This document shows positions 4,724 to 53,714 of a DNA stretch of 64,000 nt, one piece after another. The notes beneath the pieces are model-generated. The model made no database searches. It was given only the letters and a program-made list of their open reading frames with translations, and had not been told where the DNA came from. How positions within the stretch are numbered: position 1 is the stretch's first letter; the number at the start of each line of letters is the position of its first letter. Both the position numbers and the translations under genes were made by a program. Source of the DNA: a virus (lineage: Duplodnaviria; Caudoviricetes); IMG/VR virus record IMGVR_UViG_3300045594_000287, positions 1-64,000 of that record; one strand, written 5' to 3'.

Positions 4724-4733
4724 AATGTCCTCC

Positions 4734-4934
4734 TTAAAATAAAGAAAGCTGCTCGACAGGAGCAGCAGCCATGGCAGCGCGTGGAACATAAGCATAGAGA
4801 TCGCGCAATCCTCTCCATCCCCATTTTTTACAGAAAAAATAGATTGCCTGTTTCTCACTGTAAGCAGCAATCTGTTCCGATGCTCTAGATCCTTTTACCA
4901 GAGCACTGACGTTGTAAATGTTTTTGATTTTCAT
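4734..4934 (-). CDS. Hypothetical protein (66 aa)
   Basis: AGGGGG RBS; fills the gap between the RNAP C-terminal gene and the helicase. Confidence 0.65.
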   Translation of the reverse strand: MKIKNIYNVSALVKGSRASEQIAAYSEKQAIYFFCKKWGWRGLRDLYAYVPRAAMAAAPVEQLSLF

Positions 4935-4981: not shown

Positions 4982-6913
4982 TTAGCCTACGACGCTTTCG
5001 AAATAGGCCATGCCATCAACTGGCACGCCATTCTCATCTACATCGTATGAAGGAGCAACCTGTTCTTTGGCAGGCTTGCAATAACGACCACTGAGACGAC
5101 CGGTGCGGCGAACCTCATGTTTTGCACTGGACACTTTCATATCTAACGGCTCAACGAACTCGGTATCCTGGCTATCTTTCACGTCAGACATGAGTACGAG
5201 AGCAACCTTATGATTCTTCTTCACCTGCACCCCATGCTTACCGGAGACTTTCATCTCAAGTTCGCAGGAAATCATGCCGGTAATTTTGCCAGTCTTATTA
5301 CGGTACATTGCCTGAATCGATTCCGGATTATCAGAGCCCAAAGAAGTTCTGAATTTACCGATCATCTTTCCATCAACGACAATTGCATCGTGAAGATCTT
5401 TGCCGTCTTGCTGCTTACGATATGGAATCAATGTAACTTCCTTGTCTTCCATCTTTTTCATAACAGCTGTAAGATTTTCATCTCCCCAATCACTCCCCTT
5501 AGTGATAAAGCAGAGAACAGATCCATCCGGATCTTCAGGAGCGAGAACTTCTTTGATGAGCTTAGAAGCTACAAGATGTCCATTCTTGTTCTTGCGAATA
5601 GTGAATTCACCATCAAGCTCATCATCGGCAGCTTTTGCGAATTTGCCATCATCGCCATAAGCCTCGCCGAAAACGAACTCTGCCACATCGCCTTCCTTGA
5701 AGGTGCAGCTGATGAGTTTGTCCTCGGTATACTTTGCAACCTTGTCTTCATCCTTGAAGATCTGCAGCACGAATGCGAGGAACTCCTTATCCAAGACGCC
5801 ATGCGCATAACTGGAATACTGACTGTCTTCTTTGTTATCTCCAACCATGATGACAGATACCAGTACGGCAGCCCGCATGGATGCACTGAGATCGCGCATC
5901 TGGAATCTCAGAGTCTTGGCAAGGTAGGTATAGAAGGGTGCCATATCCTTTTTGAGATCCTTGATATGAGCCTCAGCCTTATAGCGATCAGGATACCGAT
6001 CACGAATATCTCTGATGCGAGTTGCCTGCACATTAGAAATAGAGCTATAAGCCTGTTTTAAGAACTCTGCCACTTGGCAAGCGCCGGTATGTTTTGGCAC
6101 GACAGATGTTTCCATCCATGCCAAAGTACGCTGGCTGAACTGCTGCTTCATCTTTGCAAACTCCTTTGCAAACGTGCAGCCTGCCTTCAATGACAGAATC
6201 CGGAGATCCTGCTGGAAGTCATGAATAACACGCACATCCTGTTTTGTGCCATCCTGAAGCTTCTTGACAGTCGTATATGACGGTCTCTCATCACATACGT
6301 ACTTAACACCGCAGAATCTCTTCCAGCCATGCTCCTTGCGGCCGATAAACTCATCGTGATCCGGTTCAAGGATGATTCTCTTCTTATCCTCATCCATGCA
6401 ATGACGCCAATCGACTTCGAAATTGAAATCGTTGTCGCTGCGTTTCCTTGACATCATTTTGACATTGCTCATGGCCTGGGCATAATCAAGGCAGAGTACC
6501 GGATCACTTGTCTTGAATGTATCAATCGACATCTCCTGCCCCATGCGGCCATTTGCATGAAGATCAGTTAATGCTGCCATGCAATTGTTCTTCGTAAGCT
6601 TCATCTCACGAGAATTCGCGACAATTACATCCGACTTCAAGATATCAATTCCCTGTGTGGGAATGTTATTATCTTGAACTTCCGGATTGCCAAGCGGAGA
6701 CACATATTCTGTTTCTCCACCGTTATTGCCAAAGCCAATATTGAAGATGGCTTTGACATCCTCCGGAACTTCATCTTTTGCAGCATTAAGCTGTACTAAT
6801 GCCTCTGAGAACGGAAGATGACGTACCGTTACTCTACCGACATCCAGGCTGTCATTAGCCAGGATATTTTTGAGGGCTTGGTTTCCAATATTGTAGTTCA
6901 TAACGTTTTCCAT
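4982..6913 (-). CDS. C-terminal part of a split YonO/RdRP-like RNA polymerase (643 aa)
   Basis: NDSLDVGRVT resembles the post-catalytic N..LG.I helix, and QEMSIDTFKT resembles the (A/V)(V/I)D(F/Y)AKT motif of cellular RdRPs and YonO. Own AGGAGG RBS; directly downstream of the DFDGD gene. Confidence 0.7.
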   Translation of the reverse strand: MENVMNYNIGNQALKNILANDSLDVGRVTVRHLPFSEALVQLNAAKDEVPEDVKAIFNIGFGNNGGETEYVSPLGNPEVQDNNIPTQGIDILKSDVIVANSREMKLTKNNCMAALTDLHANGRMGQEMSIDTFKTSDPVLCLDYAQAMSNVKMMSRKRSDNDFNFEVDWRHCMDEDKKRIILEPDHDEFIGRKEHGWKRFCGVKYVCDERPSYTTVKKLQDGTKQDVRVIHDFQQDLRILSLKAGCTFAKEFAKMKQQFSQRTLAWMETSVVPKHTGACQVAEFLKQAYSSISNVQATRIRDIRDRYPDRYKAEAHIKDLKKDMAPFYTYLAKTLRFQMRDLSASMRAAVLVSVIMVGDNKEDSQYSSYAHGVLDKEFLAFVLQIFKDEDKVAKYTEDKLISCTFKEGDVAEFVFGEAYGDDGKFAKAADDELDGEFTIRKNKNGHLVASKLIKEVLAPEDPDGSVLCFITKGSDWGDENLTAVMKKMEDKEVTLIPYRKQQDGKDLHDAIVVDGKMIGKFRTSLGSDNPESIQAMYRNKTGKITGMISCELEMKVSGKHGVQVKKNHKVALVLMSDVKDSQDTEFVEPLDMKVSSAKHEVRRTGRLSGRYCKPAKEQVAPSYDVDENGVPVDGMAYFESVVG

Positions 6914-6962
6914 GATATATTCCTCCTAATAAATAGAGCCGCCCATTGCTGAGCGGCCAACC

Positions 6963-9026
6963 TTATAATGCTGCCTCGAAAGCCTTGTCATCAGCTTTTC
7001 TCTTGACATCCGTATCAATCACGACAGCAAGAGGAGTTACATTCCAGAGAATATCGACAAAGCCGATCTCTCCGTCACTTTCCTCCCCATATCCAACACA
7101 TGCATCCCCATCGAAGTCCATGCCTGCCAGCATATTCTTCAACTCTTCCAGAGCTGGGATGGCAATGTTACCACCGGTCATTTTGCCAGCCTGCTCGATA
7201 ATCAACTTCTTCTGATAAGCAGTCAACTTCTCAGAAGCATTGACTCTGCGAGCATACTCAGCTAAAGAAACCGGTACAGCCTTTGCAAACTCTCTGAAAT
7301 GCATCTTTGGATATTTCACCAGAATCATGCGATTCCATTTAGCTGCATTGGCAACTGGGCTGATCACTTCACATTCTCCATCCTTGGAATACGTGAGAAT
7401 CCGTGCACCGAAGTCGGCGGCAGGATCTGTCGTCAATTTCATATATGCACCAGGCACAGTTACATTCAAGCGATTGAATGCAGTGACCAATCCTTTGCAA
7501 GCATTGTCAATATTACTACGGAAAATCGGTGCATAGTTTTCCAAAACGAATTTTGGAGCAATGCGTCCGATCAGTTGTGGAATATCGACATTTCCACTAC
7601 TGATCTCCGCATACGTCGGTGCGGATCCTTCATCTGCAAGCAGACGCTCACGAATGCTCTCAATCATGGCACGCATCTTACGCTCATACCAGACCTTCGT
7701 GGCTACCGGATCGATAACCATTGCAGACTGGATGCTCTGCGACGATGCGTTTGCGCCAGATTCTGGATGATGTTCAGTATGAGACATATCCAATGCATTC
7801 AGGCCCGACATCCTTGTCAAGTCAAACGGAGCCTTGAGCCCATTGAGATCAGTAGCATAATCCGCTGCTTCCTCGTCGCTCTTCCTTGAATCGACAATGC
7901 GCACCCACTTCCCTGCATATGCGCCTTCTTTGCCTTTAGAAAACACCGTCTTTGTGAACTTCGCCTGGATTTTATCATCTACCTCGTCACGATAGATAGT
8001 AACCATTTTAGTATGGTCAACAGAAATGCGATAATTGACAAACTCTTTCAAGTAAGCCCTCATCACGCACTGAGCCATGACTTTGCAGGTCCAAGGCCTG
8101 GTCTGCAGCGAAATGCCAGCTGGTGCATCAGGCATAACGAAATACCTCTTCGGATCTATCGCAGTAAGGCACTCTGCAACGAATTCCGATGCGACCATTG
8201 CGAATCCATCCTTGAACTCATTTCCAAGATCATCCTTGATCTTGCCCATGTATACAACGAAATTGCCTACATTAAGGAGTGGGGTGCTGCTGGCGCAGAA
8301 CGCTGATAAACGAACATTGCCCTGAGCTACTTCTTTTGGAGAAGCAACGCATGCCAACTGGCAGAGCTGATCACTTGCACCATATGTGACCTTGCTCCAG
8401 ATTGCCTTCCTATCAACTCCAGGAAGGTTGCATGCCGGCATAGTCAGTGTGCTCAACTTAAGCTGGCCTGCTGTACCGCGTGCACAGCTGTCTACATCAT
8501 TGTAGACAATAACGTCTTCTTTAACGTTACCATCGGCATTGAATACCTCAGACAATGGGGCTTCGTTATCCTTTTCTTCACCGAAGCGAAGAAGATCAAT
8601 AAGAACGCCATCATTCTCTGGATTAACCGTGTAGAATCTTTCGTTTACACCATCCTCACGATCCGGCACACGATAAATAACCTGATCGAGGATATATGCC
8701 ATGGCTTTATTCTGAATGGAAACATCCAGAATACCAACGGTATATCTTTGCACCATCTGTGGGCAATCTGCTTCAGTAGTTGCAGCTACTAAAACATTTT
8801 CCTGCATTGGCAACAAGGACGTCTCCAAACTTGGAGTAACGGTGATCAGCATACGCTGAACGCTGTCCTCATTGAAAACGAGCGACGTAGCCTTAAAGCT
8901 AGTCTCTGGCCGACTAAGTGCAAGACTGCGCATTGCCTCTACCTGGTGGGCAGAGAGCACGACTTTCTTTCCAAGAGCACGCTGCTCCCGGATCTTCTCG
9001 TTGCGATGGCTAATAAACTTACTCAT
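6963..9026 (-). CDS. YonO/QDE-1-like double-psi beta-barrel RNA polymerase, catalytic N-terminal part (687 aa)
   Basis: Ordered motifs FKDGFAM (cf. TDG), LQTRPWTCK (cf. Q.R...K), KYPKMH (cf. K/R-x-P-x-x-H) and AGMDFDGD (DFDGD at nt 7104-7118). Start ATG 9026 with AAGGAGG. Confidence 0.85.
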   Translation of the reverse strand: MSKFISHRNEKIREQRALGKKVVLSAHQVEAMRSLALSRPETSFKATSLVFNEDSVQRMLITVTPSLETSLLPMQENVLVAATTEADCPQMVQRYTVGILDVSIQNKAMAYILDQVIYRVPDREDGVNERFYTVNPENDGVLIDLLRFGEEKDNEAPLSEVFNADGNVKEDVIVYNDVDSCARGTAGQLKLSTLTMPACNLPGVDRKAIWSKVTYGASDQLCQLACVASPKEVAQGNVRLSAFCASSTPLLNVGNFVVYMGKIKDDLGNEFKDGFAMVASEFVAECLTAIDPKRYFVMPDAPAGISLQTRPWTCKVMAQCVMRAYLKEFVNYRISVDHTKMVTIYRDEVDDKIQAKFTKTVFSKGKEGAYAGKWVRIVDSRKSDEEAADYATDLNGLKAPFDLTRMSGLNALDMSHTEHHPESGANASSQSIQSAMVIDPVATKVWYERKMRAMIESIRERLLADEGSAPTYAEISSGNVDIPQLIGRIAPKFVLENYAPIFRSNIDNACKGLVTAFNRLNVTVPGAYMKLTTDPAADFGARILTYSKDGECEVISPVANAAKWNRMILVKYPKMHFREFAKAVPVSLAEYARRVNASEKLTAYQKKLIIEQAGKMTGGNIAIPALEELKNMLAGMDFDGDACVGYGEESDGEIGFVDILWNVTPLAVVIDTDVKRKADDKAFEAAL

Positions 9027-9039
9027 TATGGTTTCCTCC

Positions 9040-9068
9040 TTTAATGGATAGACCACCTATGCTATAAT
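9040..9068 (+). promoter_or_regulatory. sigmaA-type extended -10 promoter P1 (antisense to the early operon)
   Basis: TG-C-TATAAT at 9060-9068; weak -35 TTTAAT at 17-bp spacing. Confidence 0.65.
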
Positions 9069-29967: not shown

Positions 29968-32900
29968 ATGAGTATTTTTGACAATGAAAACAACCTTCCT
30001 GGCGTTATCACAGAAGTCGAAGCTGACTATAGCTATGGTTATGACACCTCGCTGTTTGGCACGACTGATAGTGAACTGGTGATTGGTACTGCTTTCGATG
30101 GCCCTGTCGGTGTTCCTACCCCGGTATACTCTCCGGAACACGCAGCTTACGTATTTGGTGCGCCGTATGATTCCACTAAGAAACAGGAAGCTACCCTGAC
30201 CGCTGGTGTGCAGGATGCCTGGGATCGTGGCTGCCGTACGATTTACGCAGTTCGAGTAGGCGGTAAGGATCTCTACAAGGACTTCAATTTCTGCGTAGAT
30301 AACGGATTCAAGCTTCGTGTATCTTCCATGTTCCCATCCAACACTGGTAAGGAAGTATACATGTACTACGACAACAGCAAGGGTGCTGAGAAGGTAAGCT
30401 TCTATAAGCCGGCCTCCCGTGCAACGATTGCAGAGAAAAAGAGCGGCCTGGTAACGAGCTCGAACGCAGTCTTGGTAACGGAGCTGAAACTTGCCGAGGA
30501 TCGCTCGATCAACTACGATTCCAAACTCGTAGATATGATCAACCTCGTAAATTCCGATGCATACAATAATGTTATCAAGCTCTCCATCGTAAATGCTGAC
30601 GGCGTTGACGTCACGAATTCCATGGAAGCTTATGAGATTCCTCTTGGCGTTATGTATCCTGGTGCTTACTTCATCGGTCGCAATGCTAACGCAAAAGGCC
30701 TGACGGAGAAGACCGAGACTCAGTTCTGCCTGCTCGAGAATGGCGTAACGAAGCCGTACTCCGATTTCACTGATGCTTACTTCCGTAAGCTCATCATCAA
30801 CACGGATGTGACGCAGAACTTGCCGATCTATGCCGCCAAAGCTGATGATCTTCGTACGATTCTTCGCGATGTCAGCATCACGATGATCAAGCCGTATGAC
30901 TTTCTGAAACAGTCCGGCATTTCGGATCGCGCATGGATCCCGGATTTCGTTGACTATGAAGAGACCAACCTTTCTTCTTTCGAGCTCTATAAGCGTCTCG
31001 GCTGTGGCTATGCGGTAACAGCTCGCGCAGAGCGTCGCCTGGACAGCAACAACAACGAGCTGTCTCCGCGTATTCGTGAGACGCCGACCGAAGATACGGC
31101 AAATCGCATCCAGGCTATCGAGGATGGTATCTATTCCGTCCTGCAGGACGCAGAGATCCGTTATCGTGCCCTGACTTGTGCATATGCAGATCAGAAGATC
31201 TCCGGCAAGCTTCCGCGTGCTACTGACTTCCAGAAGGCAATCGCAAAAGAGGTCGAGGTTCTTTCGGTCGATGCCACGAGCCAGACAAAGGCGATCGTAC
31301 TTACTCCGAAAGTTGATGCCGCTGAGCGCGTAAACGCAAAGGCATACGAAGTAAGCTTCAAGGATATCTCAAAAGATACAAATAAAACGGTTGCTGTATC
31401 CGACATCTACACCAATGCAGTATTCGAGGTCATCGGTGCAGTTGCCAAGGCAGCTGATCTTGCAAAAGCAAATTTCGCAGCCGGTACGAAAGTACTCGTT
31501 GAAGACACGAACGAGTTCAAGCATTTTACGACTTCTGGCCTGGTGGATCTTGACGCGAAGACCCTGGCTGGTAAGTCTTTCATCGTCAAAGGCACGGATG
31601 GCAAGAATGCACTCTACACGGTAGATGCAGCTGGCATCGTATCCAAGCCGGCCGATGTAATGAGCACGAAAGTAGTAGACGTTGACGCTACGAAAGCAAA
31701 CCAGGACAAAGAAAATGCCGATGCCGCAGCTGCTACGCCGCCGCGTACGCCGAAGACGGTCGACAAAGTCATGAAGACCGTGAACGCTAAGTTTGTCCTT
31801 GGCAGCATCTTGGATAACGTATTCGTTTATGCTTCTGGTGCTGGCAATGAACTAACTCCGGTCGGTGATTTCGAGAACGTCACGAAAGATGACAACGAGA
31901 AGACGGTAGTATTCGCTGAGAACCTGCCGACTGGTGTCAATAAAGTGGTTATCGGCTCCACGGTGTTCGTGAATACGACCCTTGAAGAGCTGGTAGAGCT
32001 GCTCAATACGAACGTTATCACTTCGAAGCTGTTCACGGCTGCCATGTCAAATGACGGTGCGGTTGAGAAAGATGAGTTCGTCGAGAACACGAACGGCAAG
32101 TTCCCTCAGGTTTATACGGAGAAGTTCAGCCTGGCAGCAGATCGCTCGATCGGTTATGACTACAGCCTGTACATCCCGTATCGCACGACTGATAACTTCG
32201 CACGTCAGCTGGCACAGCACTGCACGTACACGGAGCTGAAAACGACTCCGACGTTCGGCTTCATTGGCTGCCAGCGTATGACCAACGTTGGTCTGAAGAG
32301 CGTTTCTGATAAGGTAACGGATCTGCTCGAGATGGACTTCGACCTTTATGCCAAGACGAACTCCGGCCGCGACATCCTGGACCGCCAGAATCGCCCGTAT
32401 CCGATCGGCAAAAACGTATCCATCGTATTCGCTCAGTATGCGGTTCCAATGACGGATTATAACTACACGTACAGCGCTACTGGTGCTGCTGGTTATGCCG
32501 GCATGGTATCCACTCTTCCACTCGACCAGAGCTCCACGGCTCAGGCCATTGCGATCGACTCCACGAACTTCTCGCTCACTCAGTATCAGCTGGGCAAGCT
32601 CACTTCGAAGGGCATCGTAACCATGCGTAAGAGCTTCTCGAAAGGTATCGTCGTAACTGATGGTATCACGATGGCTCCATCCGATTCCGTTTACCGTCGC
32701 CTGTCCTGCAGCCGTATCGTTGGTTCCATCGAGGAATTGATCCGTGCAGCAGCAGAGCCATTCATCGGTAAGCAGAACCATACGGCAAACCGTAACGCAC
32801 TGCATACGGCAATCAAGTCGAAGCTCGACAAGATCGTTGGTACTCTCGTCGAGAAGTACAACTTCACGATGAATACAGATACTCGCATCGAGAAGTTCAA

Positions 32901-32991
32901 TTACATCGATATCACGTATCAGATCGTTCCGATCTATGAGATCCGTGAGATTCGTAACACGATCCAGGTAAAGGATAACCTCACTGTATGA
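29968..32991 (+). CDS. Contractile tail sheath protein
   Basis: LPGV..E, IGTA.DGP...P, FG N-terminus; C-terminal R..AEPFIG..N...I.P.YEIREI. Confidence 0.9.
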   Translation: MSIFDNENNLPGVITEVEADYSYGYDTSLFGTTDSELVIGTAFDGPVGVPTPVYSPEHAAYVFGAPYDSTKKQEATLTAGVQDAWDRGCRTIYAVRVGGKDLYKDFNFCVDNGFKLRVSSMFPSNTGKEVYMYYDNSKGAEKVSFYKPASRATIAEKKSGLVTSSNAVLVTELKLAEDRSINYDSKLVDMINLVNSDAYNNVIKLSIVNADGVDVTNSMEAYEIPLGVMYPGAYFIGRNANAKGLTEKTETQFCLLENGVTKPYSDFTDAYFRKLIINTDVTQNLPIYAAKADDLRTILRDVSITMIKPYDFLKQSGISDRAWIPDFVDYEETNLSSFELYKRLGCGYAVTARAERRLDSNNNELSPRIRETPTEDTANRIQAIEDGIYSVLQDAEIRYRALTCAYADQKISGKLPRATDFQKAIAKEVEVLSVDATSQTKAIVLTPKVDAAERVNAKAYEVSFKDISKDTNKTVAVSDIYTNAVFEVIGAVAKAADLAKANFAAGTKVLVEDTNEFKHFTTSGLVDLDAKTLAGKSFIVKGTDGKNALYTVDAAGIVSKPADVMSTKVVDVDATKANQDKENADAAAATPPRTPKTVDKVMKTVNAKFVLGSILDNVFVYASGAGNELTPVGDFENVTKDDNEKTVVFAENLPTGVNKVVIGSTVFVNTTLEELVELLNTNVITSKLFTAAMSNDGAVEKDEFVENTNGKFPQVYTEKFSLAADRSIGYDYSLYIPYRTTDNFARQLAQHCTYTELKTTPTFGFIGCQRMTNVGLKSVSDKVTDLLEMDFDLYAKTNSGRDILDRQNRPYPIGKNVSIVFAQYAVPMTDYNYTYSATGAAGYAGMVSTLPLDQSSTAQAIAIDSTNFSLTQYQLGKLTSKGIVTMRKSFSKGIVVTDGITMAPSDSVYRRLSCSRIVGSIEELIRAAAEPFIGKQNHTANRNALHTAIKSKLDKIVGTLVEKYNFTMNTDTRIEKFNYIDITYQIVPIYEIREIRNTIQVKDNLTV

Positions 32992-33800: not shown

Positions 33801-34709
33801 ATGATTGCTTCAGACTTAAAAAGCGGTCGAGTTGGAAACTCCATGAGCATATATGGCGATACATATACAACTTTTTCCGGCCATGATATGGTGTGCTCAT
33901 TTGAGCTCCCCCTACCGACTGGCGGAACTTTATTTAAAATCATAGGAGCGCTTCAGACTGTAACCTATTCAATCCATAATGAAAAAACTCCTGTGCGATG
34001 CGTAGGAGATATGAATCCAAAAGGCTATGTTTTTGGAACAAGAACTATTGCCGGCACGCTGATCTTCACTGTGTTCAATAAACATTGGGCAAAAGAAATG
34101 ATGGAAGAATATCTAAAAAATGCAGAAGTTGATGCACACATGCTTACAGATGAACTTCCACCATTCAATATAACTGTAAGCTGTGCAAATGAATATGGAG
34201 CCGAGGCCAGGTTGGCAATATATGGAGTAACTATTGTCAATGAGGGACAAGTTATGAGTATCAATGACGTGTATACGGAAAATACTTATCAGTTTTTCGC
34301 GACAGATGTTGACTACATGACGGACGTGACCAATATTGCTTCAGGAGGTTCGTCAGGAGGAAGAAATAACAGCCTCCCACCCATTGTCACTCCAAAAGGA
34401 AGAACGCCAGACAAACCAACTCCGGTAGAAAATCCATCATACGATGATGACAAGGGAAGCAAACCGAAAGTTCCTGACACAGACCCATTGAAACCATCAT
34501 CTTCAGCAAAAGACTGGCCAGCAACAGAAGAGGAAGCTATGAATGAAGCACAAAATAGCTACGACGAGAGATTGAAAAAGATTCAGGTTGATTTTACCCA
34601 GGGAAATATCAATGCGACTGAAGCACGAAGGCAGCAGTTGATGCTGCAACGAGCACTTAAAATCACCCAGACGGCCATTCGGCATCATTACGAAGGAGAG
34701 TTAGCATGA
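33801..34709 (+). CDS. Tail tube paralog with Pro-rich linker and helical C-terminus
   Basis: Aligns by eye with 33049-33687 (TFSG.D, GALQT.TY, RTIAGTLIF, DELPPFNI, ANEYG). Confidence 0.75.
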   Translation: MIASDLKSGRVGNSMSIYGDTYTTFSGHDMVCSFELPLPTGGTLFKIIGALQTVTYSIHNEKTPVRCVGDMNPKGYVFGTRTIAGTLIFTVFNKHWAKEMMEEYLKNAEVDAHMLTDELPPFNITVSCANEYGAEARLAIYGVTIVNEGQVMSINDVYTENTYQFFATDVDYMTDVTNIASGGSSGGRNNSLPPIVTPKGRTPDKPTPVENPSYDDDKGSKPKVPDTDPLKPSSSAKDWPATEEEAMNEAQNSYDERLKKIQVDFTQGNINATEARRQQLMLQRALKITQTAIRHHYEGELA

Positions 34710-44960: not shown

Positions 44961-44987
44961 AGCAGCTCCAATATGGAGCTGCTTTTT
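44961..44987 (+). terminator. Intrinsic terminator
   Basis: AGCAGCTCCA/TGGAGCTGCT plus T run. Confidence 0.8.
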
Positions 44988-45062
44988 GTCCATATACAGA
45001 TCGCAAAAGGGTAATGAAATAGTTAGTGAATACGTTAATGCAGGTAGACTGCTGATATAGAG

Positions 45063-48000
45063 GTGCGAACATTGAGACAGAATTTTATAAATGACGATTC
45101 AAAGAAAATCGTTGAAAGCAAAGTAAATGATCATATCGGGAAAATCACCAGAAACTCCGTCGAAGAGCAGATCCTTGAAAAAAGCGATAAGACAGATAAA
45201 AATCTGTATAATAAAAATATTGACCAGTGGAGAGAGATTCATGGCGCCGAAATAGCTAATGGACTTCTGAAGTCAACTGACGCGGTTGCGGGAATAAATG
45301 TCAGAGCGATAAAAAATACGCTGACAAACGCTCACAGTTCTCAGATCATAATGAATCCTTCTGAACTTTACGGGGAAACTCGTAAAAGTCGTTACCTCGA
45401 AGCAGACGTAAAAGAAGTCTACGAAAAAATGGGAATGGATGCCTTCGAGCACGTCCTTGACCTGAATGAAACTGGAAGCAAATACTTTGTAGGAAAAACT
45501 GCAACCAGTATTGCATTCCAGCATACTAACCGTGGTGTAAAACAGAACTATGACAGAATGATGGCCGGAATCAAAAACTCCGAAGAAAAAGGCCTGTTCG
45601 TAGACTGGGATACAGAAACCATGAGCGGAACTAATAAATTTGGAAAACAAATAGTCGACCAAATGACAGAGTTTACGTTCAAAGTTGCAAATTACGATGA
45701 CGGATCTATTGTAAAAGGACGTTCCTACGGCTCGATCATCGGTGCCACGGAAGCACAATACAATGACTACTTGAAAAAAATTGAACGCTATGAAAATGGT
45801 GGATCGCTTTCAAATTTAGATAGAGTTGAACTTAACCGCTTAGCTTTGATGGGTAAAAGCAAGGTCAAGGAAACCGAAAGCGGCATCCATAATTACTCCT
45901 ATTTCGCTGGTGCGGAAGAAGTAGCTGAAAACCGTTCAGAGGATATGCGTGCCGGCCTCGAGCAGTTATTTGGTATAGGTAAAGCTCAGCAAGCAAAAGG
46001 CGCCGTAGAAGAATATGGCGGGCAGAAAATGTTTGCCTGGGAGAAAAAACTATTCCAGGGCTTAGATGAAATCATTCAAAATGATCTCACTGCAGTCGGA
46101 CACAATACACTCACATTCGATAACGGCGTTATGCTTCATCAGTTGCAGCATGGAATGTGGTCTGCAGGCGGCAAGGCATATGCTGACCAAATGCTTAAAG
46201 CTACCAATGGATTGCATTTTGAGCATGAGAATGATACTATCGCGATGATTCGTCAATCCGTTCCAGATCGTCTTCAGATTTATCGCAATGCCGACGGTAC
46301 GTTAAACCAAGCAGCAATGCAGTACAACAAAGAACATGGTCTTACACTATTCCAGCAGGAAGCGATTCAGAATGCAATGAATAGTGACTTCTATGCTTCT
46401 ATTGGTGCTGCTCATACGTCAGATGTCGACGTACAGGCAAATGCTATGATGTACGCTTCAAATAAATTGAAGCTCAATACGGAAGAATCGTTCTTCAAAG
46501 GAATGCCGGAGTCTGCTCCATCGATCCAGCTGACTGGAGGAAGTAAGCAGCTACTGTATGCAATGGAAGGCGGCGGCATAGAATATAAGGGACTGCTGGG
46601 TTTTGTAACAGATCCATTGACTGGAGATATTCGCACATCTGATAAGTATCGGATGAGTAAAGTACCTACGGGCGGAGAAATGGCTTCAGAAGTAAACAAA
46701 GACTTCTTTGCCACTGGCAACATTCACAAAGGTGTATCATACACCATAAGCAATGCAACAAAAGTGGAGACGTCAGACGAGTTCCGCGACCTTATCGGGA
46801 AATATAGGCCGGGGATGGATGTCCGCAGTCTGGTAGCCGTACAACTTATGCCGGTATCCAATTCAAAAACAATGCGGGCAAAAACACCTTACACTTTGAT
46901 TGGATCCATGACCGATGTGCAAGACTATATCAATCATACTTTTTTGCATACTGGACATGCCGTTGAAGACTCCCAGGGACATAGAACCTGGACTGCCAAT
47001 GGCATTCCGGAAGAATCGAGACGACTTCTTCAGGTAAGAGAATTTGCCAACGACGGTGTCCATGCCGGATTTAAGGATTATTCTCTCGAAGACCAGCTTG
47101 CTGAAAGCTCCTATCGTCTTACGAATGAATCTGCTGCCAGAGTAGTCCGTGCGCATGAACTGAAAAAAGACGTTGGCGTATTACGATACGTTCAGGATAT
47201 GGATAAGTATGCCCGGGAAAACGCTATCGATCCGACTGATGAATATCAGATGGAAAATATGCGGCAAAAATTCCGCGACAGCGTATTCAGCCGTTCAAAA
47301 AGCATCGAATCCAAAATTCGCAGTGGAAAAGGGTACGAAGCAGAAGAAATGGTTGGAACGTTCCACGACTATTTCGGGTATATAGATCGTGATACGAAAA
47401 ATCCAATGGTATGGTCAGATACGGTCATGTCAGCTCTGGATCGCGAGGGATATGTTCGTAAAAACCAGCAAGTGATTTCCGGCGCTATTAAACATGCCTA
47501 TGCAAGAGCAGGCGAGTCTGTTACTGATCAAGACATTTCTCATATGACTGCCCTTCAGAAAAAGAACAAAGAAGCTTCCGCCTACTATAGAATGTACATG
47601 GAGTCTGCTACAGATGCAGCTATCCGTAAATTTGGATCAGGCCGGCCCGTAGGGGAGCATCGGATGGGTATCCATACATACGAACTCAACCAGTTTGAGT
47701 TTGACATGAATGGTTACAAAGGGAATTTCAATCCAGACAATGATATATTTAGTGTCCATCTCGGTGAAAATGGCAATACGATGGTCAATCGTTTGCTGCG
47801 TCATCAAGGCTTGCGCACAGACATATCTGATGAAGCAAAGATTGCCGAGCTGCGTAGATTTCAAAAATTTATTGGTGGATCCGAAACTCTCAGTGAGCTG
47901 AATTCAACCAGAAGAGAACTTCTGGAAAAAAACAACTTAATCAACATTGGTGAAGATACAATAGACTCTGCTGCAACGAAGATTATAACCCCGCTGCAGA

Positions 48001-51000
48001 ACTCTCGTCAGTACCAGCCGGCAGGCGGTCGTATTACTCCTACGCTGAAATACGAGCTTGCCGCTTCCATGGAGAACATGGGACTTGATAACCCTGAGGA
48101 GGTGTTGTCAAAAGCAGATAAAACGATCCCCAAGATTTCTATATATAGTTCTAAAACTGGCGCAGACAGCTATGCACACGATATCGTTAACAGCGTATTG
48201 TTCAACGATCTTGATGGGAAAACACTCGATGAAGTAAGAGACGACCTCCAGGAGTATGGATATACTCGTGAGCAGGCAGAAAAAATCATCGCTATGAGAG
48301 AGCAGCGCAAGGCTGATGCGCAGCCGTTCATGAAACGACTGATCGAAAGTGTTCAAAAAAATGGAGGCTCAATCGGATATAACGCAGAAGATCGTGAGGT
48401 GTTCGTAAGCCATAAAGGGAAGACAACAAAATTAAATAATCTTCCCATGGATGAATACTCCAATGGAATGTTCTATACCAGGGTGAATAATTCAAAAGTC
48501 CATGCATCGTCAGGATTCTACGCTACTGGAAAGTATAAAGATGGAAAAGGAACTTTGAAGTTCGGTTCATCGTTATTGAAAGCTGGAGACAGCGTAGGCT
48601 GGATGGATACAGCTATCGCCAGAGGTGCTGAAAACGGAGACCTTGGAGATGAGGTAAACAGCGTCCTTAGTGGGTATGCGAAGGTTATTCGTGAAAATTC
48701 TTCTATCATGGAAGAAGATCTTCAGGACATGCGTGGGCAGTTTGACATTAACTATCGCGAAGTAGCCCCGTTTATCGAAGATAACTGGGATCAGATATCC
48801 CAAAATATGGTATTTGATGATTCGCCTCAGGGGCAGATAAACCAGATTCTAAGAGATGCTGCGATGGACGGTAAACTTAGTGGTGACCGGCTTAACTTTG
48901 AGTTGAATTCTGCCATCATCCAGAATGCAGACAACATCTTGCCAGTAATGGCACAAAAATATGGTGGAAGCTATGCACAGACCATTATGTCTGGTTTTTC
49001 TCTCAATATGAAACATGCTGGAGAACTTAAGGCCAGCGCAACAGAAATAACGAATTTTGGCGACGACTTAGATAGTGGTAAGCGTGACGTAGCAAGCTTC
49101 ACAGGACGTGCTTACAAATTCCGCGCGGATGGAAAAGTTGATGGTGTTCGTATAGGACAATCTGTAACATCTGAGATAGCAGGTAATTATGCAGAAGACG
49201 CCGGCGAAGGAATCTCATACGGTGTAGATACAACACTTCGTACTGGCCGTGTACGAATGACAACCAGCGGGCTGCGTAATCTCGTAAATAGTGCAGACAT
49301 CGACAATGACTATGTACGAGACGTGTTGACTGGAATACATTTGGACGAAGGATCTGCTGCTGCCGATCCTAGACTTATAGATCAGTATTTCACTAGACGT
49401 AAGTCTATGCAGAGAATCGCAATGCATCGAATCTTTGACATGGACAAAGATACAATCGATAACCTTAGCACGAAGCAGCATACTGCTCCAATTCTAAACA
49501 TTGACCCTAAAACGGGTAATATCAGTTTCACGTATTCGAACGGCCTATTCGTAGAAAGCACAGACTTGTCGGGAGAAAGCCCGATTAGCGTCAAAGGATT
49601 CCAGGGTGCAAAAGAAGAAGTTGCAATCAAAGAAGCTGGTTTGTTCAACGTTGGCTTCTTCTCGAAGAAGGGTAATCTTTTTGCTGACCAGCAGAGCGTA
49701 ACAGATCTTTTAAATAGCAAGAAATACCATGGCCGCATCGTGAATGCAGAAGATTCGCGTCTAGAGGCTCTTAACGTCCTGAATGAAGTATACAACGCTT
49801 CGTTCTACAATCTGTCACTGGATGCCAACGGAAATACAAAACTCGGAGAACAAGCAGAAAAAGGCATGTATAATGCCCTATTTGCTACGCCTGGAGCAAT
49901 AGATAAACGTGTAGGAAGCACATTAGACCGACTAGGCCTTAGCAGCATGAAGGATCTTGTGCCGAGGTTGGATTTCATCGAATCCCTAAACGCGAAAGAT
50001 ATATCAAAAACTCCATTGGGAGCAATGATCAGTGCAAAAGCTGGACGTAACGTATCTCATGATGAGATTCTAAAAGTAATCGGCAGTGAATTTAACAGTG
50101 CGAAAAGCATGTACGATGCAATGATGGAAGAGCGCTATAAGCCATGGGATACGCTCGAAAGTATTGCTCGTAATGCTAATGTTATAAAAAATGGAGAAAC
50201 GGTCCATGCTTTCAGCAACACGATTGCTGCAGAGAATAAGCATTTAAACGCACGATCCGTCTTGAGAGTTACAGATAACCTCCTCGAAAAATATAATGGG
50301 GATGCCCAAAAAGTCGCATCATTGCTGCAAGAAGCAATGCCAGGGATTCACGTTGGTGGCAGCGGGCGGCTGTATCACAGTGGAGATATTGATATTGATG
50401 CTGTGATGGAAATAGCGAATAAGGAACTTGACGGCAACGTAAGAACCTTCTACACAAATGGAAACAAAACCATTTCAGCAGAACAATTCAGCATGCTTCC
50501 TGAAGGCGAAAAAGGAAAATGGAAAAAGAACGAATCCAGTTATGCATACACTGAATTAATGCAGCTCCCAGACCAGGACCGTGAGCGCTTAAGTGACGAG
50601 AATGGAGTTGGCAAGACCCTAAAGATGGATCATCGTACCAAGGCAATGCTTGATACCCAGGTCTACAGCAAAGAAGGTCTTAAGAATGTTCGTAATGGCT
50701 TTGTTGATTCAATGGGCAAAGAAGCTGGCGAAGCTCAGTATCGTAAGTATTTTATGGATGCCCAAAACGGAAAACTTGTGGCTGAAGGACTTAGCGACAA
50801 GATAAACGATTCAAGGTATTATGATCCAGGAGATAAACGCGTTGCTATCGATGGAGGACAAGATTTAACTAAAAAAGACAAAGAAGAAATAAGCAAGGCA
50901 AAGGAAGAGCTTAGAAAATCTGGAATAAACAAAAAGATTGCTGACCAGATAATCGAAGAAGCTCGAACCGCCGGAGTTAAAGACGTTGGCGTAGGGGCTA

Positions 51001-53714
51001 TTAAGAAGCAATACTCTTACAATATGTATAGCGTTGCAGATGACTTCAACAGAAAAGGCGGACTAACTAAAGATGACATGATCAAAAAATGGGGGTACAA
51101 AGAACCTATTTCCTTGACCAGCTTAATCACCGGCGCAAGCGATACTGTCGGACTCGAAAAATCTATGTATGGATCGAATACGCTTATAGATTTACATATA
51201 CCTGAACTGGGTGACCATCAGATATATGATGATGAAGCCCATCGTTATATGGCATTGCCTTGGGCTGATCCTAAAACAATGGGATCTTCAGATGAACTTG
51301 CTAGAACAGCATATCAGAAAAAAATTGCGGGCATGCAAAATGTTGTAAATCGAATGCGTCGAACAGCAGATGAAAACAATGGCCAAATCACAGATAAGGA
51401 AAAAATTGAAATCCAAGCAGATCTAAAAAATCGAGTAACCCAAACACATGAAGCGATTGCCGCTCAACTTGTACAGAAGAAAGGCTTAATGGCTCAAGCT
51501 TCAGAAGCTCACTTCGGAGATGCTGGTTTCAACAAAGCTTATGGTATACAGCTCGAAGGCAACGAAAAAGGATTCTGGGGAAACATAAACTTTGATGGGC
51601 TAAATATCTCAAAAGAAGCTGGGAAGGGAGAAGCCGGATTAGAGATTGATTACCAAGTGGCTGGAATGAAAGCGAGGAATCGTTTCTATAACGATAAATA
51701 CTTCAAGTCATTAGGCCTGGATGAAGAAACGACAAAAGCTATCCAGGAAAATACATTTGATCGCTTGAACAACGGCGGAACATTATCATTGAATATCCGT
51801 AACCCACAGGGTTACGATAAATCGACCAGCGCCGCAGCAATGTATTTTGACAAATCAATAAAAGGTAACACACTTGCTACATCTGCAGTGATGTGGGAAT
51901 CCAAAAAAGGCGATTATGACTCAGATGAAGCTGACTTCAAAATCCTTAAAGGCCGTGCCACTATCGTTGGGAATAATGGCAAGCAAACGGTAACTGATAT
52001 TGACTATGCTACTTATCAGACGCTGCAGCAGGCCAAAGAAAAAGGCATAATCAAAGATATATCGATGTCCGAAGAAGGACTTAAACTCTTCGCAGACACT
52101 AAGAAATCAATCATGTATAACGCCGCAGACCGGAATAAAGCTTCAAGGTCTGAACTCGGGAATACTGAATTGGGGCAGGGAGAGTACAACTACAGTAAGT
52201 TATACAATGAGTCTCTTGAAGGCAATGGCAACGTTGATAAGGTTGGCCACCATCATTTAACAACGGGGCTTAGAGAGCTTGCTCCTGAACGAAAAATGCA
52301 GCTGGCAAATATCTATAAAGATACTGAGCAAGCAGTCATTAATAAGGTTGGCCAGGAAGCATACGACAAACTGGATAACGCATCTAAGCGATCTGAATAC
52401 TTCAATTATGTCTCTGAAAATATGACTGGAGAAGCTTCAAACGAAGCGCGTAAAGCTGCAAGCTTTAATTTCAGAGTAGAGCGAAGCGCTCAGGATGCCG
52501 AAGCACGAGCGCGTAAAGTTGCTGCCGGCGAAATGAATGACGCAGTGTTCAAGTATTTCCGGGTAGCTGAGCAGGCTAAATTCTCTGACGGGTCAAAAGT
52601 CTATAGCGGTGAAGATCTGAAGGCAATGGCTCAGGTTCATACTGCATTGAACGAGGCGTTCTTATCTCCTAAGAACGAAAAAGGTGTTGGCAACATCTCA
52701 ATTGCTTCACAGTTGAGAGATGCTTTCCAGGACGTGTATCATGCAGCCAGGAGCAATAGCTTAAATACAGAAGCCAGAGAGAAAGCAAGAAACAAACTCA
52801 TTGACATCATTGACCCGATCATTCAAGGCAGGCGCGGGAAAGAAGTTGCAAAGATCCCGGGGATGGAACTTGATGCTGAGGGCAAGGCTACTGAGGCTGG
52901 AGCAAGGCATGCAGCAGAAATATTCGCATCCGTAGCCGACAGAGTAAGTTTAGCCGGGGTAAATATGAACACCTTGAATATGGGTGTTACTAGCGGGGCT
53001 ACCTCAGACGGAATCATGCACGCCGCATACCAACGTGCCAGTGACAATATGATCATGGATATGGCTGAACATCAGGCAAACATCCAGAGAAAGATAAATG
53101 GTAATGGATACAGCTCAATAGAGGAATCTACTGGCATTCACGCCTTCAGAGGATACGAAAAAGAAAATGCCGAACTCATGAGAGAAAATGCAGCTGAGGC
53201 AGCACGCAAATTAAAAGACTATGAAAATGGGAAGGCTCCAAACTTATCCGATGCCGTACCTGTCAGTAGAGGATTGGGGAAAGAAATCGGAGAAGCCTTA
53301 TCACACATGAAGATTACTGGTAAAGGCTTTGCAAAAGGCATGCTGGGAATTGCAGGTTCTCTTCTTGTTTCTGGGTATGCCAACAATCCGAGTGCCCCAG
53401 CAAGCAGCCAGCCTGCTCCGGCTGAGACTCAAGCTCAAGGAGCAACCGACTCAGCCAATGGGATGTCTGAAACTCAAGTGCCAAATCTATCTGACGGAAA
53501 TGTGAATGTATTGAGGGGCGGTCCGAAGTCAGGATACGTAATCAATATCAATGCCACATCGCCAAGAGGACAATCAGCAGCACAAAACGCCATTAGCCAA
53601 GCGATTGGAGGAGCTGTTCCAATGAACTCTTCTATAAATGTTGCCACCAATACATCGTACAAAGATAAAATAGACCAATTCCAAATTGGCAAAATCATAG
53701 AAGGAATGTTTTAA
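45063..53714 (+). CDS. Giant putative virion RNA polymerase (fused beta/beta'-like DPBB domains) with N-terminal DEDDh 3'-5' exonuclease
   Basis: Exonuclease: DTE (183-185), GHN..TFD (346-353), H451-x4-D456. RNAP: HLDEG (about 1428), K1593-x6-KG, QKKG (about 2139), R2246-NP, GDYDSD (2283-2288). The start may be TTG 45072 (GAGGTG RBS). Confidence 0.75.
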   Translation: MRTLRQNFINDDSKKIVESKVNDHIGKITRNSVEEQILEKSDKTDKNLYNKNIDQWREIHGAEIANGLLKSTDAVAGINVRAIKNTLTNAHSSQIIMNPSELYGETRKSRYLEADVKEVYEKMGMDAFEHVLDLNETGSKYFVGKTATSIAFQHTNRGVKQNYDRMMAGIKNSEEKGLFVDWDTETMSGTNKFGKQIVDQMTEFTFKVANYDDGSIVKGRSYGSIIGATEAQYNDYLKKIERYENGGSLSNLDRVELNRLALMGKSKVKETESGIHNYSYFAGAEEVAENRSEDMRAGLEQLFGIGKAQQAKGAVEEYGGQKMFAWEKKLFQGLDEIIQNDLTAVGHNTLTFDNGVMLHQLQHGMWSAGGKAYADQMLKATNGLHFEHENDTIAMIRQSVPDRLQIYRNADGTLNQAAMQYNKEHGLTLFQQEAIQNAMNSDFYASIGAAHTSDVDVQANAMMYASNKLKLNTEESFFKGMPESAPSIQLTGGSKQLLYAMEGGGIEYKGLLGFVTDPLTGDIRTSDKYRMSKVPTGGEMASEVNKDFFATGNIHKGVSYTISNATKVETSDEFRDLIGKYRPGMDVRSLVAVQLMPVSNSKTMRAKTPYTLIGSMTDVQDYINHTFLHTGHAVEDSQGHRTWTANGIPEESRRLLQVREFANDGVHAGFKDYSLEDQLAESSYRLTNESAARVVRAHELKKDVGVLRYVQDMDKYARENAIDPTDEYQMENMRQKFRDSVFSRSKSIESKIRSGKGYEAEEMVGTFHDYFGYIDRDTKNPMVWSDTVMSALDREGYVRKNQQVISGAIKHAYARAGESVTDQDISHMTALQKKNKEASAYYRMYMESATDAAIRKFGSGRPVGEHRMGIHTYELNQFEFDMNGYKGNFNPDNDIFSVHLGENGNTMVNRLLRHQGLRTDISDEAKIAELRRFQKFIGGSETLSELNSTRRELLEKNNLINIGEDTIDSAATKIITPLQNSRQYQPAGGRITPTLKYELAASMENMGLDNPEEVLSKADKTIPKISIYSSKTGADSYAHDIVNSVLFNDLDGKTLDEVRDDLQEYGYTREQAEKIIAMREQRKADAQPFMKRLIESVQKNGGSIGYNAEDREVFVSHKGKTTKLNNLPMDEYSNGMFYTRVNNSKVHASSGFYATGKYKDGKGTLKFGSSLLKAGDSVGWMDTAIARGAENGDLGDEVNSVLSGYAKVIRENSSIMEEDLQDMRGQFDINYREVAPFIEDNWDQISQNMVFDDSPQGQINQILRDAAMDGKLSGDRLNFELNSAIIQNADNILPVMAQKYGGSYAQTIMSGFSLNMKHAGELKASATEITNFGDDLDSGKRDVASFTGRAYKFRADGKVDGVRIGQSVTSEIAGNYAEDAGEGISYGVDTTLRTGRVRMTTSGLRNLVNSADIDNDYVRDVLTGIHLDEGSAAADPRLIDQYFTRRKSMQRIAMHRIFDMDKDTIDNLSTKQHTAPILNIDPKTGNISFTYSNGLFVESTDLSGESPISVKGFQGAKEEVAIKEAGLFNVGFFSKKGNLFADQQSVTDLLNSKKYHGRIVNAEDSRLEALNVLNEVYNASFYNLSLDANGNTKLGEQAEKGMYNALFATPGAIDKRVGSTLDRLGLSSMKDLVPRLDFIESLNAKDISKTPLGAMISAKAGRNVSHDEILKVIGSEFNSAKSMYDAMMEERYKPWDTLESIARNANVIKNGETVHAFSNTIAAENKHLNARSVLRVTDNLLEKYNGDAQKVASLLQEAMPGIHVGGSGRLYHSGDIDIDAVMEIANKELDGNVRTFYTNGNKTISAEQFSMLPEGEKGKWKKNESSYAYTELMQLPDQDRERLSDENGVGKTLKMDHRTKAMLDTQVYSKEGLKNVRNGFVDSMGKEAGEAQYRKYFMDAQNGKLVAEGLSDKINDSRYYDPGDKRVAIDGGQDLTKKDKEEISKAKEELRKSGINKKIADQIIEEARTAGVKDVGVGAIKKQYSYNMYSVADDFNRKGGLTKDDMIKKWGYKEPISLTSLITGASDTVGLEKSMYGSNTLIDLHIPELGDHQIYDDEAHRYMALPWADPKTMGSSDELARTAYQKKIAGMQNVVNRMRRTADENNGQITDKEKIEIQADLKNRVTQTHEAIAAQLVQKKGLMAQASEAHFGDAGFNKAYGIQLEGNEKGFWGNINFDGLNISKEAGKGEAGLEIDYQVAGMKARNRFYNDKYFKSLGLDEETTKAIQENTFDRLNNGGTLSLNIRNPQGYDKSTSAAAMYFDKSIKGNTLATSAVMWESKKGDYDSDEADFKILKGRATIVGNNGKQTVTDIDYATYQTLQQAKEKGIIKDISMSEEGLKLFADTKKSIMYNAADRNKASRSELGNTELGQGEYNYSKLYNESLEGNGNVDKVGHHHLTTGLRELAPERKMQLANIYKDTEQAVINKVGQEAYDKLDNASKRSEYFNYVSENMTGEASNEARKAASFNFRVERSAQDAEARARKVAAGEMNDAVFKYFRVAEQAKFSDGSKVYSGEDLKAMAQVHTALNEAFLSPKNEKGVGNISIASQLRDAFQDVYHAARSNSLNTEAREKARNKLIDIIDPIIQGRRGKEVAKIPGMELDAEGKATEAGARHAAEIFASVADRVSLAGVNMNTLNMGVTSGATSDGIMHAAYQRASDNMIMDMAEHQANIQRKINGNGYSSIEESTGIHAFRGYEKENAELMRENAAEAARKLKDYENGKAPNLSDAVPVSRGLGKEIGEALSHMKITGKGFAKGMLGIAGSLLVSGYANNPSAPASSQPAPAETQAQGATDSANGMSETQVPNLSDGNVNVLRGGPKSGYVININATSPRGQSAAQNAISQAIGGAVPMNSSINVATNTSYKDKIDQFQIGKIIEGMF

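Follow-up and report, generated by a model that had tools for sequence, protein, structure and literature searches.

The window analysed here is a stretch of 64,000 nucleotides (nt) of phage DNA (Duplodnaviria; Caudoviricetes), namely the first 64 kb of the 106,938-bp IMG/VR record IMGVR_UViG_3300045594_000287, which is estimated to be 45% complete. Three giant open reading frames (ORFs) of 2,146, 2,883 and 2,755 codons are found in its right-hand half, and the middle one is the subject of this report. Its product is predicted to combine a DEDDh-type 3'-5' exonuclease near the N-terminus with a single-chain RNA polymerase (RNAP) of the two-barrel kind further along the same chain. The features of the locus are summarized in Table 1. 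Residues are numbered from the GTG at 45063; the probable start of the gene is the TTG at 45072, 9 nt after an AGAGG Shine-Dalgarno sequence (45058-45062), in which case the true residue numbers would be 3 lower. The product of the gene caller for this ORF (P0002) has 2,880 residues.

Table 1. Features of the exonuclease-polymerase gene and its surroundings (positions in the window; aa, amino acid residues)
Feature	Position	Strand	Basis or remark
Upstream giant, 2,146 aa	38517..44957	+	Orthologue of 0305phi8-36 gp145, MTATph1 CDS0026 and WH1 gp096; BLASTP E 1e-105, 6e-75 and 6e-65
GC-rich hairpin, 10 bp	44961..44983	.	4 nt past the stop of the upstream giant; TTTTGT then on + strand
Giant gene, predicted exonuclease + single-chain RNA polymerase	45063..53714	+	ORF list, translation; 2,883 aa counted from GTG 45063
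Predicted DEDDh (DnaQ/epsilon-like) 3'-5' exonuclease domain, aa ~178-470	45594..46472	+	AF2 model, VIA, Foldseek
Exo I VDWDTET, aa 180-186 (D183, E185)	45600..45620	+	D and E each in 113/114 long members
Family-specific insertion, aa ~227-324	45741..46034	+	Secondary structure of the model; model residues ~78-175
Exo II GHNTLTFD, aa 346-353 (N348, D353)	46098..46121	+	N in 110/114, D in 113/114
DT motif, NDT (D391)	46227..46244	+	D in 102/114
Exo III AHTSDVD, aa 450-456 (H451, D456)	46410..46430	+	H in 98/114, D in 97/114; others mostly unaligned
Candidate beta-like barrel motif KLGEQAEKG (K1593, E1599, K1600)	49839..49865	+	Invariant in 16 homologues; motif-level call only
Predicted beta'/Rpb1-like RNA polymerase region, aa ~2000-2570	51060..52772	+	Foldseek, VIA
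RNP (R2246, P2248), then GDYDSDE (D2284, D2286, D2288) 36-38 residues on	51795..51929	+	Predicted catalytic loop of the beta'-like barrel
Stretch rich in Gly and weakly hydrophobic, aa 2759-2773; conserved motif SGYVININ near the C-terminus, aa 2823-2830	53337..53552	+	
Downstream giant, 2,755 aa	53863..62130	+	Orthologue of baseplate hub gp147, MTATph1 CDS0032 and WH1 gp094; BLASTP E 1e-69, 1e-107 and 2e-83

The motifs of the N-terminal domain follow the order expected of DEDD nucleases, and Exo III has the form H-x4-D (H451-TSDV-D456) that defines the DEDDh subgroup, as opposed to Y-x3-D. By itself this string of motifs is suggestive only: it was found in the same order in 55 of 20,000 shuffles of the protein, which makes it moderately improbable. 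The comparison with relatives is more informative. All of D183, E185, N348, D353, D391, H451 and D456 are invariant in 16 of 16 homologues, which are 2,356-3,207 residues long and share 28-41% identity in the exonuclease region. A six-member exonuclease profile searched against 1.84 billion cluster representatives (E <= 1e-3) matched 140 representatives of 50% identity clusters, 114 of them at least 2,000 residues long and nearly all of these with the exonuclease at about residues 110-680. The short matches look like fragments from contig ends with the same offset, and there were no small ordinary DnaQ proteins among the 140. The complete D-E-D-H-D set is present in 97 of the 114 long representatives; in the remaining 17, the alignment ends ahead of Exo III (15) or the sequence is degenerate or unaligned at Exo I (2).

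Mean pairwise identity is 0.40 in the exonuclease domain, 0.31-0.34 in the rest of the protein, and 0.40 in a stretch of 100 residues about the catalytic loop of the polymerase. These values show the exonuclease domain to be the best-conserved stretch of the protein and indicate strong purifying selection on it. The domain might be a structural or nucleic-acid-binding remnant without catalysis, and one relative, P0097, does have a degenerate D-E-G-H-N set. Against this, about 100 lineages with only ~20-40% identity have retained all five catalytic residues, and no other part of the protein is better conserved. We give the remnant explanation very little credence. P0097 itself (2,692 residues, metagenomic) also lacks the polymerase motif RxP...DxDxD described below, as does just one other long member, and may be a decayed copy.

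The predicted fold leads to the same assignment. An AlphaFold (AF2) model of residues 150-500 (m620ff00d5910), built on the alignment of 16 homologues, reached a predicted local distance difference test score (pLDDT) of 86 and a predicted template modelling score (pTM) of 0.86. In VIA its best match is the epsilon subunit of Escherichia coli DNA polymerase III (1j53_A; Z 13.0, root-mean-square deviation 2.6, 168 of 174 residues aligned, model residues 29-321), followed by the exonucleases of PolC (9qpc; Z 12.7) and DinG (11.7), ExoI (11.0) and a TREX1 homologue (10.9). The RNA-specific members 3'hExo, CAF1, RNase T and REXO2 score 10.1-10.8, and the best 50 chains are all DEDD nucleases or exonuclease domains of polymerases. 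The top Foldseek matches are likewise all DEDDh nucleases, with a probability of 0.9-1.0 for ExoI, Orn, TREX2, RNase T and epsilon. When a family profile of 119 sequences was aligned to E. coli epsilon with hhalign, the match was weak (E 0.0085), and the residues paired as follows: D183 with D12, E185 with E14, D353 with D103 (in HNAAFD), D391 with D129 (in 'TDSLAVAR'), H451 with H162, and D456 with D167. A six-sequence profile was misaligned to E. coli DnaQ by the same program, whether the insertion described below was kept or cut out. Because the catalytic residues are invariant in the homologues, 97 of 114 long members keep an intact set and the predicted fold is of the epsilon type, the domain is beyond a chance assembly of motifs. 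We consider it nearly certain, on the alignments and the model, that this is a real DEDDh fold with an intact active site.

The domain is hardly visible to sequence libraries. Pfam and PHROGs were blind to it in the whole protein, in residues 150-500 and in residues 1-600, and Pfam returned nothing even at E <= 10. The Pfam family PF00929 (RNase_T) had zero matches in six frames of the whole record, and its gathering score was not reached. Searches of PDB sequences with phmmer and with profiles of 6 and 16 homologues reached no better than E 0.18-0.45, for a TREX1 homologue matched at Exo II. There was no match by tblastn of residues 1-800 and 1380-2579 against 50,697 phage records, none in a single-sequence scan of IMG/VR, and nothing above 0.83 in a protein atlas. 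The sequence libraries miss the domain because ~80-95 conserved extra residues lie between Exo I and Exo II. On fold and catalytic residues as predicted here, the domain is placed in the DEDDh superfamily, outside PF00929 as that profile now stands. The best viral structure matches of the model (BFVD entries A0A8S5RKK9 and A0A7R7G2L5_1; E ~1e-6, template modelling score 0.52 on the query) derive from parts of long viral proteins, and one bears the label 'YprB ribonuclease H-like domain-containing protein'; both are probably further family members under uninformative UniProt names.

In the model, the insertion folds into two helices followed by a hairpin, then a long helix with another hairpin after it. 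It accounts for the wide spacing of the first two motifs, with 170 residues between D183 and D353 vs 91 between D12 and D103 of E. coli epsilon. Its mean pairwise identity is 0.37, and V255, R259, L260, G264, G274, F281, G298, G306 and Q309 are invariant among the 16 homologues. The insertion is conserved in its own right and is therefore a functional part of the domain, not a loose loop. It is important to note that the locus had already received a sequence-only reading, made without database searches, which named Exo I, Exo II, a DT motif and Exo III, pointed to a long insertion between the first two, and assigned the whole to the DnaQ/RNase T superfamily. All four motifs were recovered on the plus-strand ORF at the positions it gave, the spacing bears out the insertion, and the epsilon-type fold together with the complete DEDDh set upholds the superfamily.

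The second enzyme lies in the C-terminal half. A model of residues 1380-2579 (m49914093bdd0) is of moderate quality (pLDDT 67.6). With this model Foldseek returned 95 PDB chains at E <= 1e-3, the top 50 of which are all bacterial RNAP beta' (best 2.2e-5), and a second look with VIA aligned 260-340 residues to Rpb1, A190, C160 and beta' at Z ~9, over model residues 619-1190. The predicted catalytic loop of the beta'-like barrel is highly conserved: a local profile aligns 82 relatives, all of which have D-D-D and P, with R present in 80 and K in the other 2, and RxP...DxDGD was matched by pattern, at the same relative place, in 30 of 32 other long relatives. Fold matches span only model residues 564-1190, with none over the KLGEQAEKG part that is the candidate for the beta-like half, whose K1593 and K1600 would be the two lysines expected of the second barrel. 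No similarity was found between the exonuclease-polymerase protein and the upstream giant protein.

Instead of a transcriptase, the two-barrel enzyme might be some other type of proofreading polymerase. In archaea, the two-barrel DNA polymerase PolD acts together with an exonuclease subunit (PMC7281927), and the best structural neighbours of the present exonuclease are replicative proofreaders, so the protein might be imagined as a DNA polymerase resembling PolD, or as an enzyme akin to a primase, with the exonuclease as its editor. Against this, the fold matches of the polymerase region are all RNAP beta'/Rpb1, PolD is absent from the top 50, and the gene is situated in a tail module, away from replication genes. 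We regard such an identity as highly improbable.

Exonuclease and RxP...DxDxD motif occur together in 112 of the 114 long relatives, the latter at about residues 2,130-2,700. The sequence-only reading had spoken of a giant RNAP candidate and had proposed to check that the fusion is conserved; the beta'/Rpb1-like fold and the motif back the former, and the pairing in the relatives answers the latter. The family can be described, from its sequences and the models, as apparent single-chain (beta-beta'-like) two-barrel polymerases of 2,500-3,800 residues with a constant N-terminal exonuclease, and we are confident that the exonuclease is a constant partner of the two-barrel RNAP. Full-text literature searches yielded no account of a virion RNA polymerase, or of any two-barrel one, with an exonuclease fused to it. 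What appears to be new is the joining of a divergent DEDDh exonuclease module to a single-chain RNAP of the virion type.

The near-universal fusion (112 of 114) raises the question of whether the exonuclease acts on the transcripts of its partner, that is, whether it is an RNA 3'-end enzyme that trims, matures or proofreads them, for instance by taking off misincorporated or backtracked 3' ends or by defining the 3' ends of pre-early RNAs. Many DEDDh enzymes are RNases, and RNase T, Orn, 3'hExo and CAF1 match the model at Z 10-10.8. In coronaviruses, the DEDDh enzyme nsp14 ExoN proofreads the work of an RNA polymerase. On the other hand, two-barrel polymerases themselves dispose of backtracked RNA, at the active site. 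In structure the domain comes closest to the DNA proofreaders epsilon and PolC, and the exonuclease survives in a protein without the polymerase motif (MTATph1 CDS0027, see below). In view of these objections an RNA substrate of this kind seems to us rather improbable.

The genomic setting suggests when and where the protein may act. Upstream of the giants lies a module with terminase, portal, major capsid and a tail sheath of 1,007 residues; the terminase is nearest to that of Moorella phage MTATph1 (43%), then to that of Bacillus phage 0305phi8-36 (31%), and the genes of the relatives are found on contigs of 253-260 kb. By these comparisons the phage is best classed as a contractile-tailed jumbo phage related to 0305phi8-36 and MTATph1. 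A crAss-like identity was ruled out by the tail sheath and by the terminase being nearest to those of MTATph1 and 0305phi8-36. The downstream giant also matches PHROG 20474 (E 2e-177), and gp145 of 0305phi8-36, the orthologue of the upstream giant, is a virion protein by mass spectrometry (record EF583821.1). Since the flanking giants are orthologous to gp145 and gp147, the exonuclease-polymerase gene occupies the slot of 0305phi8-36 gp146.

In its record, gp146 is annotated as 'hypothetical tape measure protein; identified as virion protein by mass spectrometry'. The tape-measure assignment was made mainly from tail length; only the last 60 residues of gp146 align with its relatives, and divergence is fast (PMC2147016). 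The gp145-type gene is the first after the tail chaperonins and is well conserved in the lineage, unlike the fast-evolving gp146 slot. Either of the two giants, the gp145-type or the one in the gp146 slot, may be the true tape measure of the lineage. The arrangement of three giants recurs in metagenomic relatives, in some of which plasmid-type genes separate the giants. Rep3 genes lie between giants in two relatives (L006:884-2269 and L007:9375-10748), and ParA with a faint ParB match does so on the contig of P0012; these plasmid-type genes hint at a phage-plasmid lifestyle or at mobile inserts there.

The C-terminal end of the protein offers a further point of comparison within the slot. Hydrophobicity on the Kyte-Doolittle scale reaches a maximum of 1.14 at residues 2751-2773, which is under the level of a confident membrane helix. 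0305phi8-36 gp146 and MTATph1 CDS0031 have G-Y-x-V-N motifs that resemble SGYVININ, ~50-60 residues before the C-terminus, with weak, non-significant hhalign values of E 0.03 and 0.34, respectively. The Gly-rich segment and SGYVININ may form a tail anchor common to the slot proteins.

Two cultured phages carry related proteins in this slot. In Bacillus phage vB_BceM_WH1, gp095 (BCO16148.1; 2,515 residues, 'virion structural protein') lies between the gp145-like and hub genes. The exonuclease profile matches its residues 85-385, insertion included (hmmsearch E 3e-10; hhalign 96.8%, 268 columns), and RYP...DHDGD follows from residue 1958, together with a sub-threshold Pfam match to RNA_pol_Rpb1_2 (E 0.09). 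By sequence, WH1 gp095 is a member of the family. It differs from the window protein in that its Exo I reads DIEN and its Exo II N...YD, and it is beyond the reach of BLAST and of the six-sequence profile. A scan of five cultured relatives with that profile and PF00929 found only MTATph1; WH1 gp095 was seen via its slot gene.

The Moorella phage MTATph1 differs more. CDS0027 (WPA89514.1; 1,309 residues) has a DEDDh exonuclease at residues ~860-1070 from which the insertion is largely missing, the version left between the motifs being shorter. It passes PF00929 narrowly (24.2 bits vs a cut-off of 24; 25.5 bits in a second scan), aligns to the family with all motifs in register (hhalign probability 91%, 230 columns), and has no DxDxD. 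Just after it (L005:13539-15781) come a gene annotated as 'transposase' and a 252-residue 'hypothetical protein'; we take this element to be of the IS21 type, with CDS0029 as the helper, reading from the N-terminus of CDS0029. Beyond the transposase, CDS0031 (313 residues) matches the C-terminus of WH1 gp095 (E 3e-7), so that the slot gene of MTATph1 looks as if it had been split by an insertion. As for 0305phi8-36 itself, gp146 has no DxDxD, and exonuclease-like motifs at residues ~1216-1700 are non-significant by hidden Markov model and by Pfam; gp146 is used here as a positional counterpart only. From these comparisons the exonuclease seems to be the more constant occupant of the slot, and the polymerase a frequent partner.

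An exonuclease that outlives its polymerase could also be delivered for its own sake. In that case an injected counter-defence or host-takeover nuclease would degrade host or defence nucleic acids before phage expression, the fusion to the polymerase serving for delivery; its possible targets include host DNA with nicks or breaks, plasmids, retron or primer DNA, and short signalling oligonucleotides. The MTATph1 slot exonuclease, without a polymerase motif, fits such a self-standing delivered activity, as does the strong conservation of the catalytic residues, and the structural neighbours include Cap18, associated with the cyclic oligonucleotide-based antiphage signalling system (CBASS), oligoribonuclease/REXO2, TREX1 and the homologue Plex9.1. 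However, one or a few injected molecules are poorly suited to the bulk destruction of nucleic acids, a 3'-5' exonuclease requires free 3' ends, the insertion bears no sign of a small-molecule substrate, and no defence-related neighbours were seen. We consider a role in counter-defence unlikely, if the most credible of the explanations that compete with the one preferred below.

Two known polymerases provide the closest functional parallels. The gp96 protein of phage P23-45 is a virion two-barrel RNAP fused to the tape measure, which transcribes the pre-early genes next to the entering end (PMC10770324); that paper contains 0 occurrences of an exonuclease or nuclease in connection with gp96. 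Both gp96 and the window protein are single-chain two-barrel polymerases from the tail tape-measure region, although P23-45 is a Thermus siphovirus, the window phage is a contractile-tailed jumbo phage, and no sequence similarity to gp96 was detected. Moreover, P23-45 has gp64, and the window has a candidate gene for a second polymerase (the DFDGD ORF at 6963-9056). The other parallel is gp66 of the crAss-like phage phi14:2, a podovirus, which is packaged in the virion, shares the giant single-chain two-barrel design with a DxDxD loop, and in vitro finds a good template in single-stranded or denatured DNA but a poor one in double-stranded DNA (bioRxiv 10.1101/2020.03.07.982082). The window phage differs from phi14:2 in its tail sheath and in having unrelated head genes. 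With such a preference for single strands, a strand-removing partner becomes plausible. Full-text searches pairing virion RNAP with exonuclease found no exonuclease fusion for gp66, the gp66 paper itself not having been searched for nuclease terms. As for the exonuclease, the N-terminal domain of epsilon (DnaQ) and the exonuclease domains of PolC and DinG share its fold, the same five catalytic residues in the same order, and the DT motif; the window domain differs from epsilon in having no significant sequence-profile match to it, in carrying further inserts before Exo III, and in being embedded in a virion-module protein of 2,883 residues, whereas epsilon is a small subunit of the replisome.

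The explanation that we prefer, tentatively and with somewhat less than even confidence in it as a whole, is that of an ejected exonuclease-polymerase that aids pre-early transcription. The protein would enter the virion via its C-terminal end, like its slot counterpart gp146 in 0305phi8-36, and would be ejected ahead of or along with the DNA. The polymerase would then make the first (pre-early) transcripts, as gp96 does in P23-45, and the exonuclease would trim or resect the 3'-ended strand at the entering genome, thereby supplying a two-barrel polymerase poor in clamp elements with single-stranded template or with an end that has been processed. The parts of this explanation differ in strength. 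Delivery by the virion, for which the position in the slot speaks, is on balance probable. DNA 3' ends are favoured as the substrate because the nearest structural relatives are DNA proofreaders and because phi14:2 gp66 favours single-stranded DNA; that the processing of DNA ends in aid of early transcription, and not action on some other substrate, is the actual task appears possible to us and a shade more doubtful than the explanation taken as a whole.

Several observations weigh against this explanation. The direct similarity of the window protein to gp146 is non-significant, and the link to the virion is positional. The gap in Z between DNA and RNA exonucleases is only ~2, by which the substrate is not settled. 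The exonuclease lies ~900 residues ahead of the polymerase core, with no model in which the two sites face each other. CDS0027 keeps the exonuclease without DxDxD, and gp146 may do likewise; the job of the exonuclease is therefore not strictly dependent on a fused polymerase. There is also a point of polarity. A 3'-5' exonuclease removes the 3'-ended strand at a terminus. The strand left over has its 5' end there and, being read 3' to 5', can template only transcription toward that terminus; if template is made by resection, the pre-early genes should be oriented toward the end that enters first. The sequence-only reading, which had offered transcript trimming or proofreading, resection of the incoming end and degradation of defence-related nucleic acids as possible roles, did not mention this constraint on the second of them.

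A bolder version of the ejected exonuclease-polymerase would have the exonuclease itself make the template, with pre-early transcription starting by resection, not by promoter melting, and running toward the genome end. We think this improbable. If true, template-by-resection would be a mode of transcription initiation without described precedent, and it would explain the preference of single-chain virion polymerases for single-stranded DNA in vitro.

Injected single-chain RNA polymerases of the cellular type are known in two groups, the crAss-like phages and the Thermus P23-45-like phages, and the lineage of 0305phi8-36 and MTATph1 would be a third, large one. Injected RNA polymerases need a usable template inside the cell, and the third group adds an exonuclease that looks catalytically intact to the same chain. 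If the nuclease prepares ends or templates, then genome entry, end processing and first transcription would be joined in one ejected protein. In some members of the lineage the protein in the slot of the 'hypothetical tape measure protein' would be a carrier of enzymes. WH1 has been cultured and carries a family member, gp095, which makes it a practical test system and opens the question to direct experiment.

The candidate second polymerase stands apart from the giants. Two adjacent ORFs of 697 and 643 residues occupy 4982-9056 on the minus strand; the first of them (6963-9056) has K-Y-P...MDFDGD 46 residues short of its stop, resembling the catalytic loop of the YonO/QDE-1 type. The pair had no match in Pfam, PHROG or phage tblastn, and is a candidate for a split non-virion RNA polymerase by its motif. 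In a survey of jumbo phages, only a YonO-like enzyme is listed for 0305phi8-36. A PIF1-like helicase of 612 residues (3032-4870, minus strand; Pfam PIF1, E 2e-25) belongs to the same leftward operon as this candidate.

Two further features of the window are small. A 302-residue ORF (33801-34709) after the sheath (29968-32991) matches a PHROG named 'major head protein' (E 2e-40) while lying at the position of the tail tube; small genes after the sheath of MTATph1 carry the same label, which for the 302-residue ORF is probably wrong and carried over. The hairpin at 44961-44983 is classed as terminator-like on the minus strand only in a program-made list. Lastly, words from 45063-49062 were looked for in public sequencing runs. 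None of the runs listed as sharing them is an RNA run, and they occur at a share of 0.6-1.0 in metagenomes of bioreactor sludge and wastewater that come from several studies; two of these runs may be the source sample.

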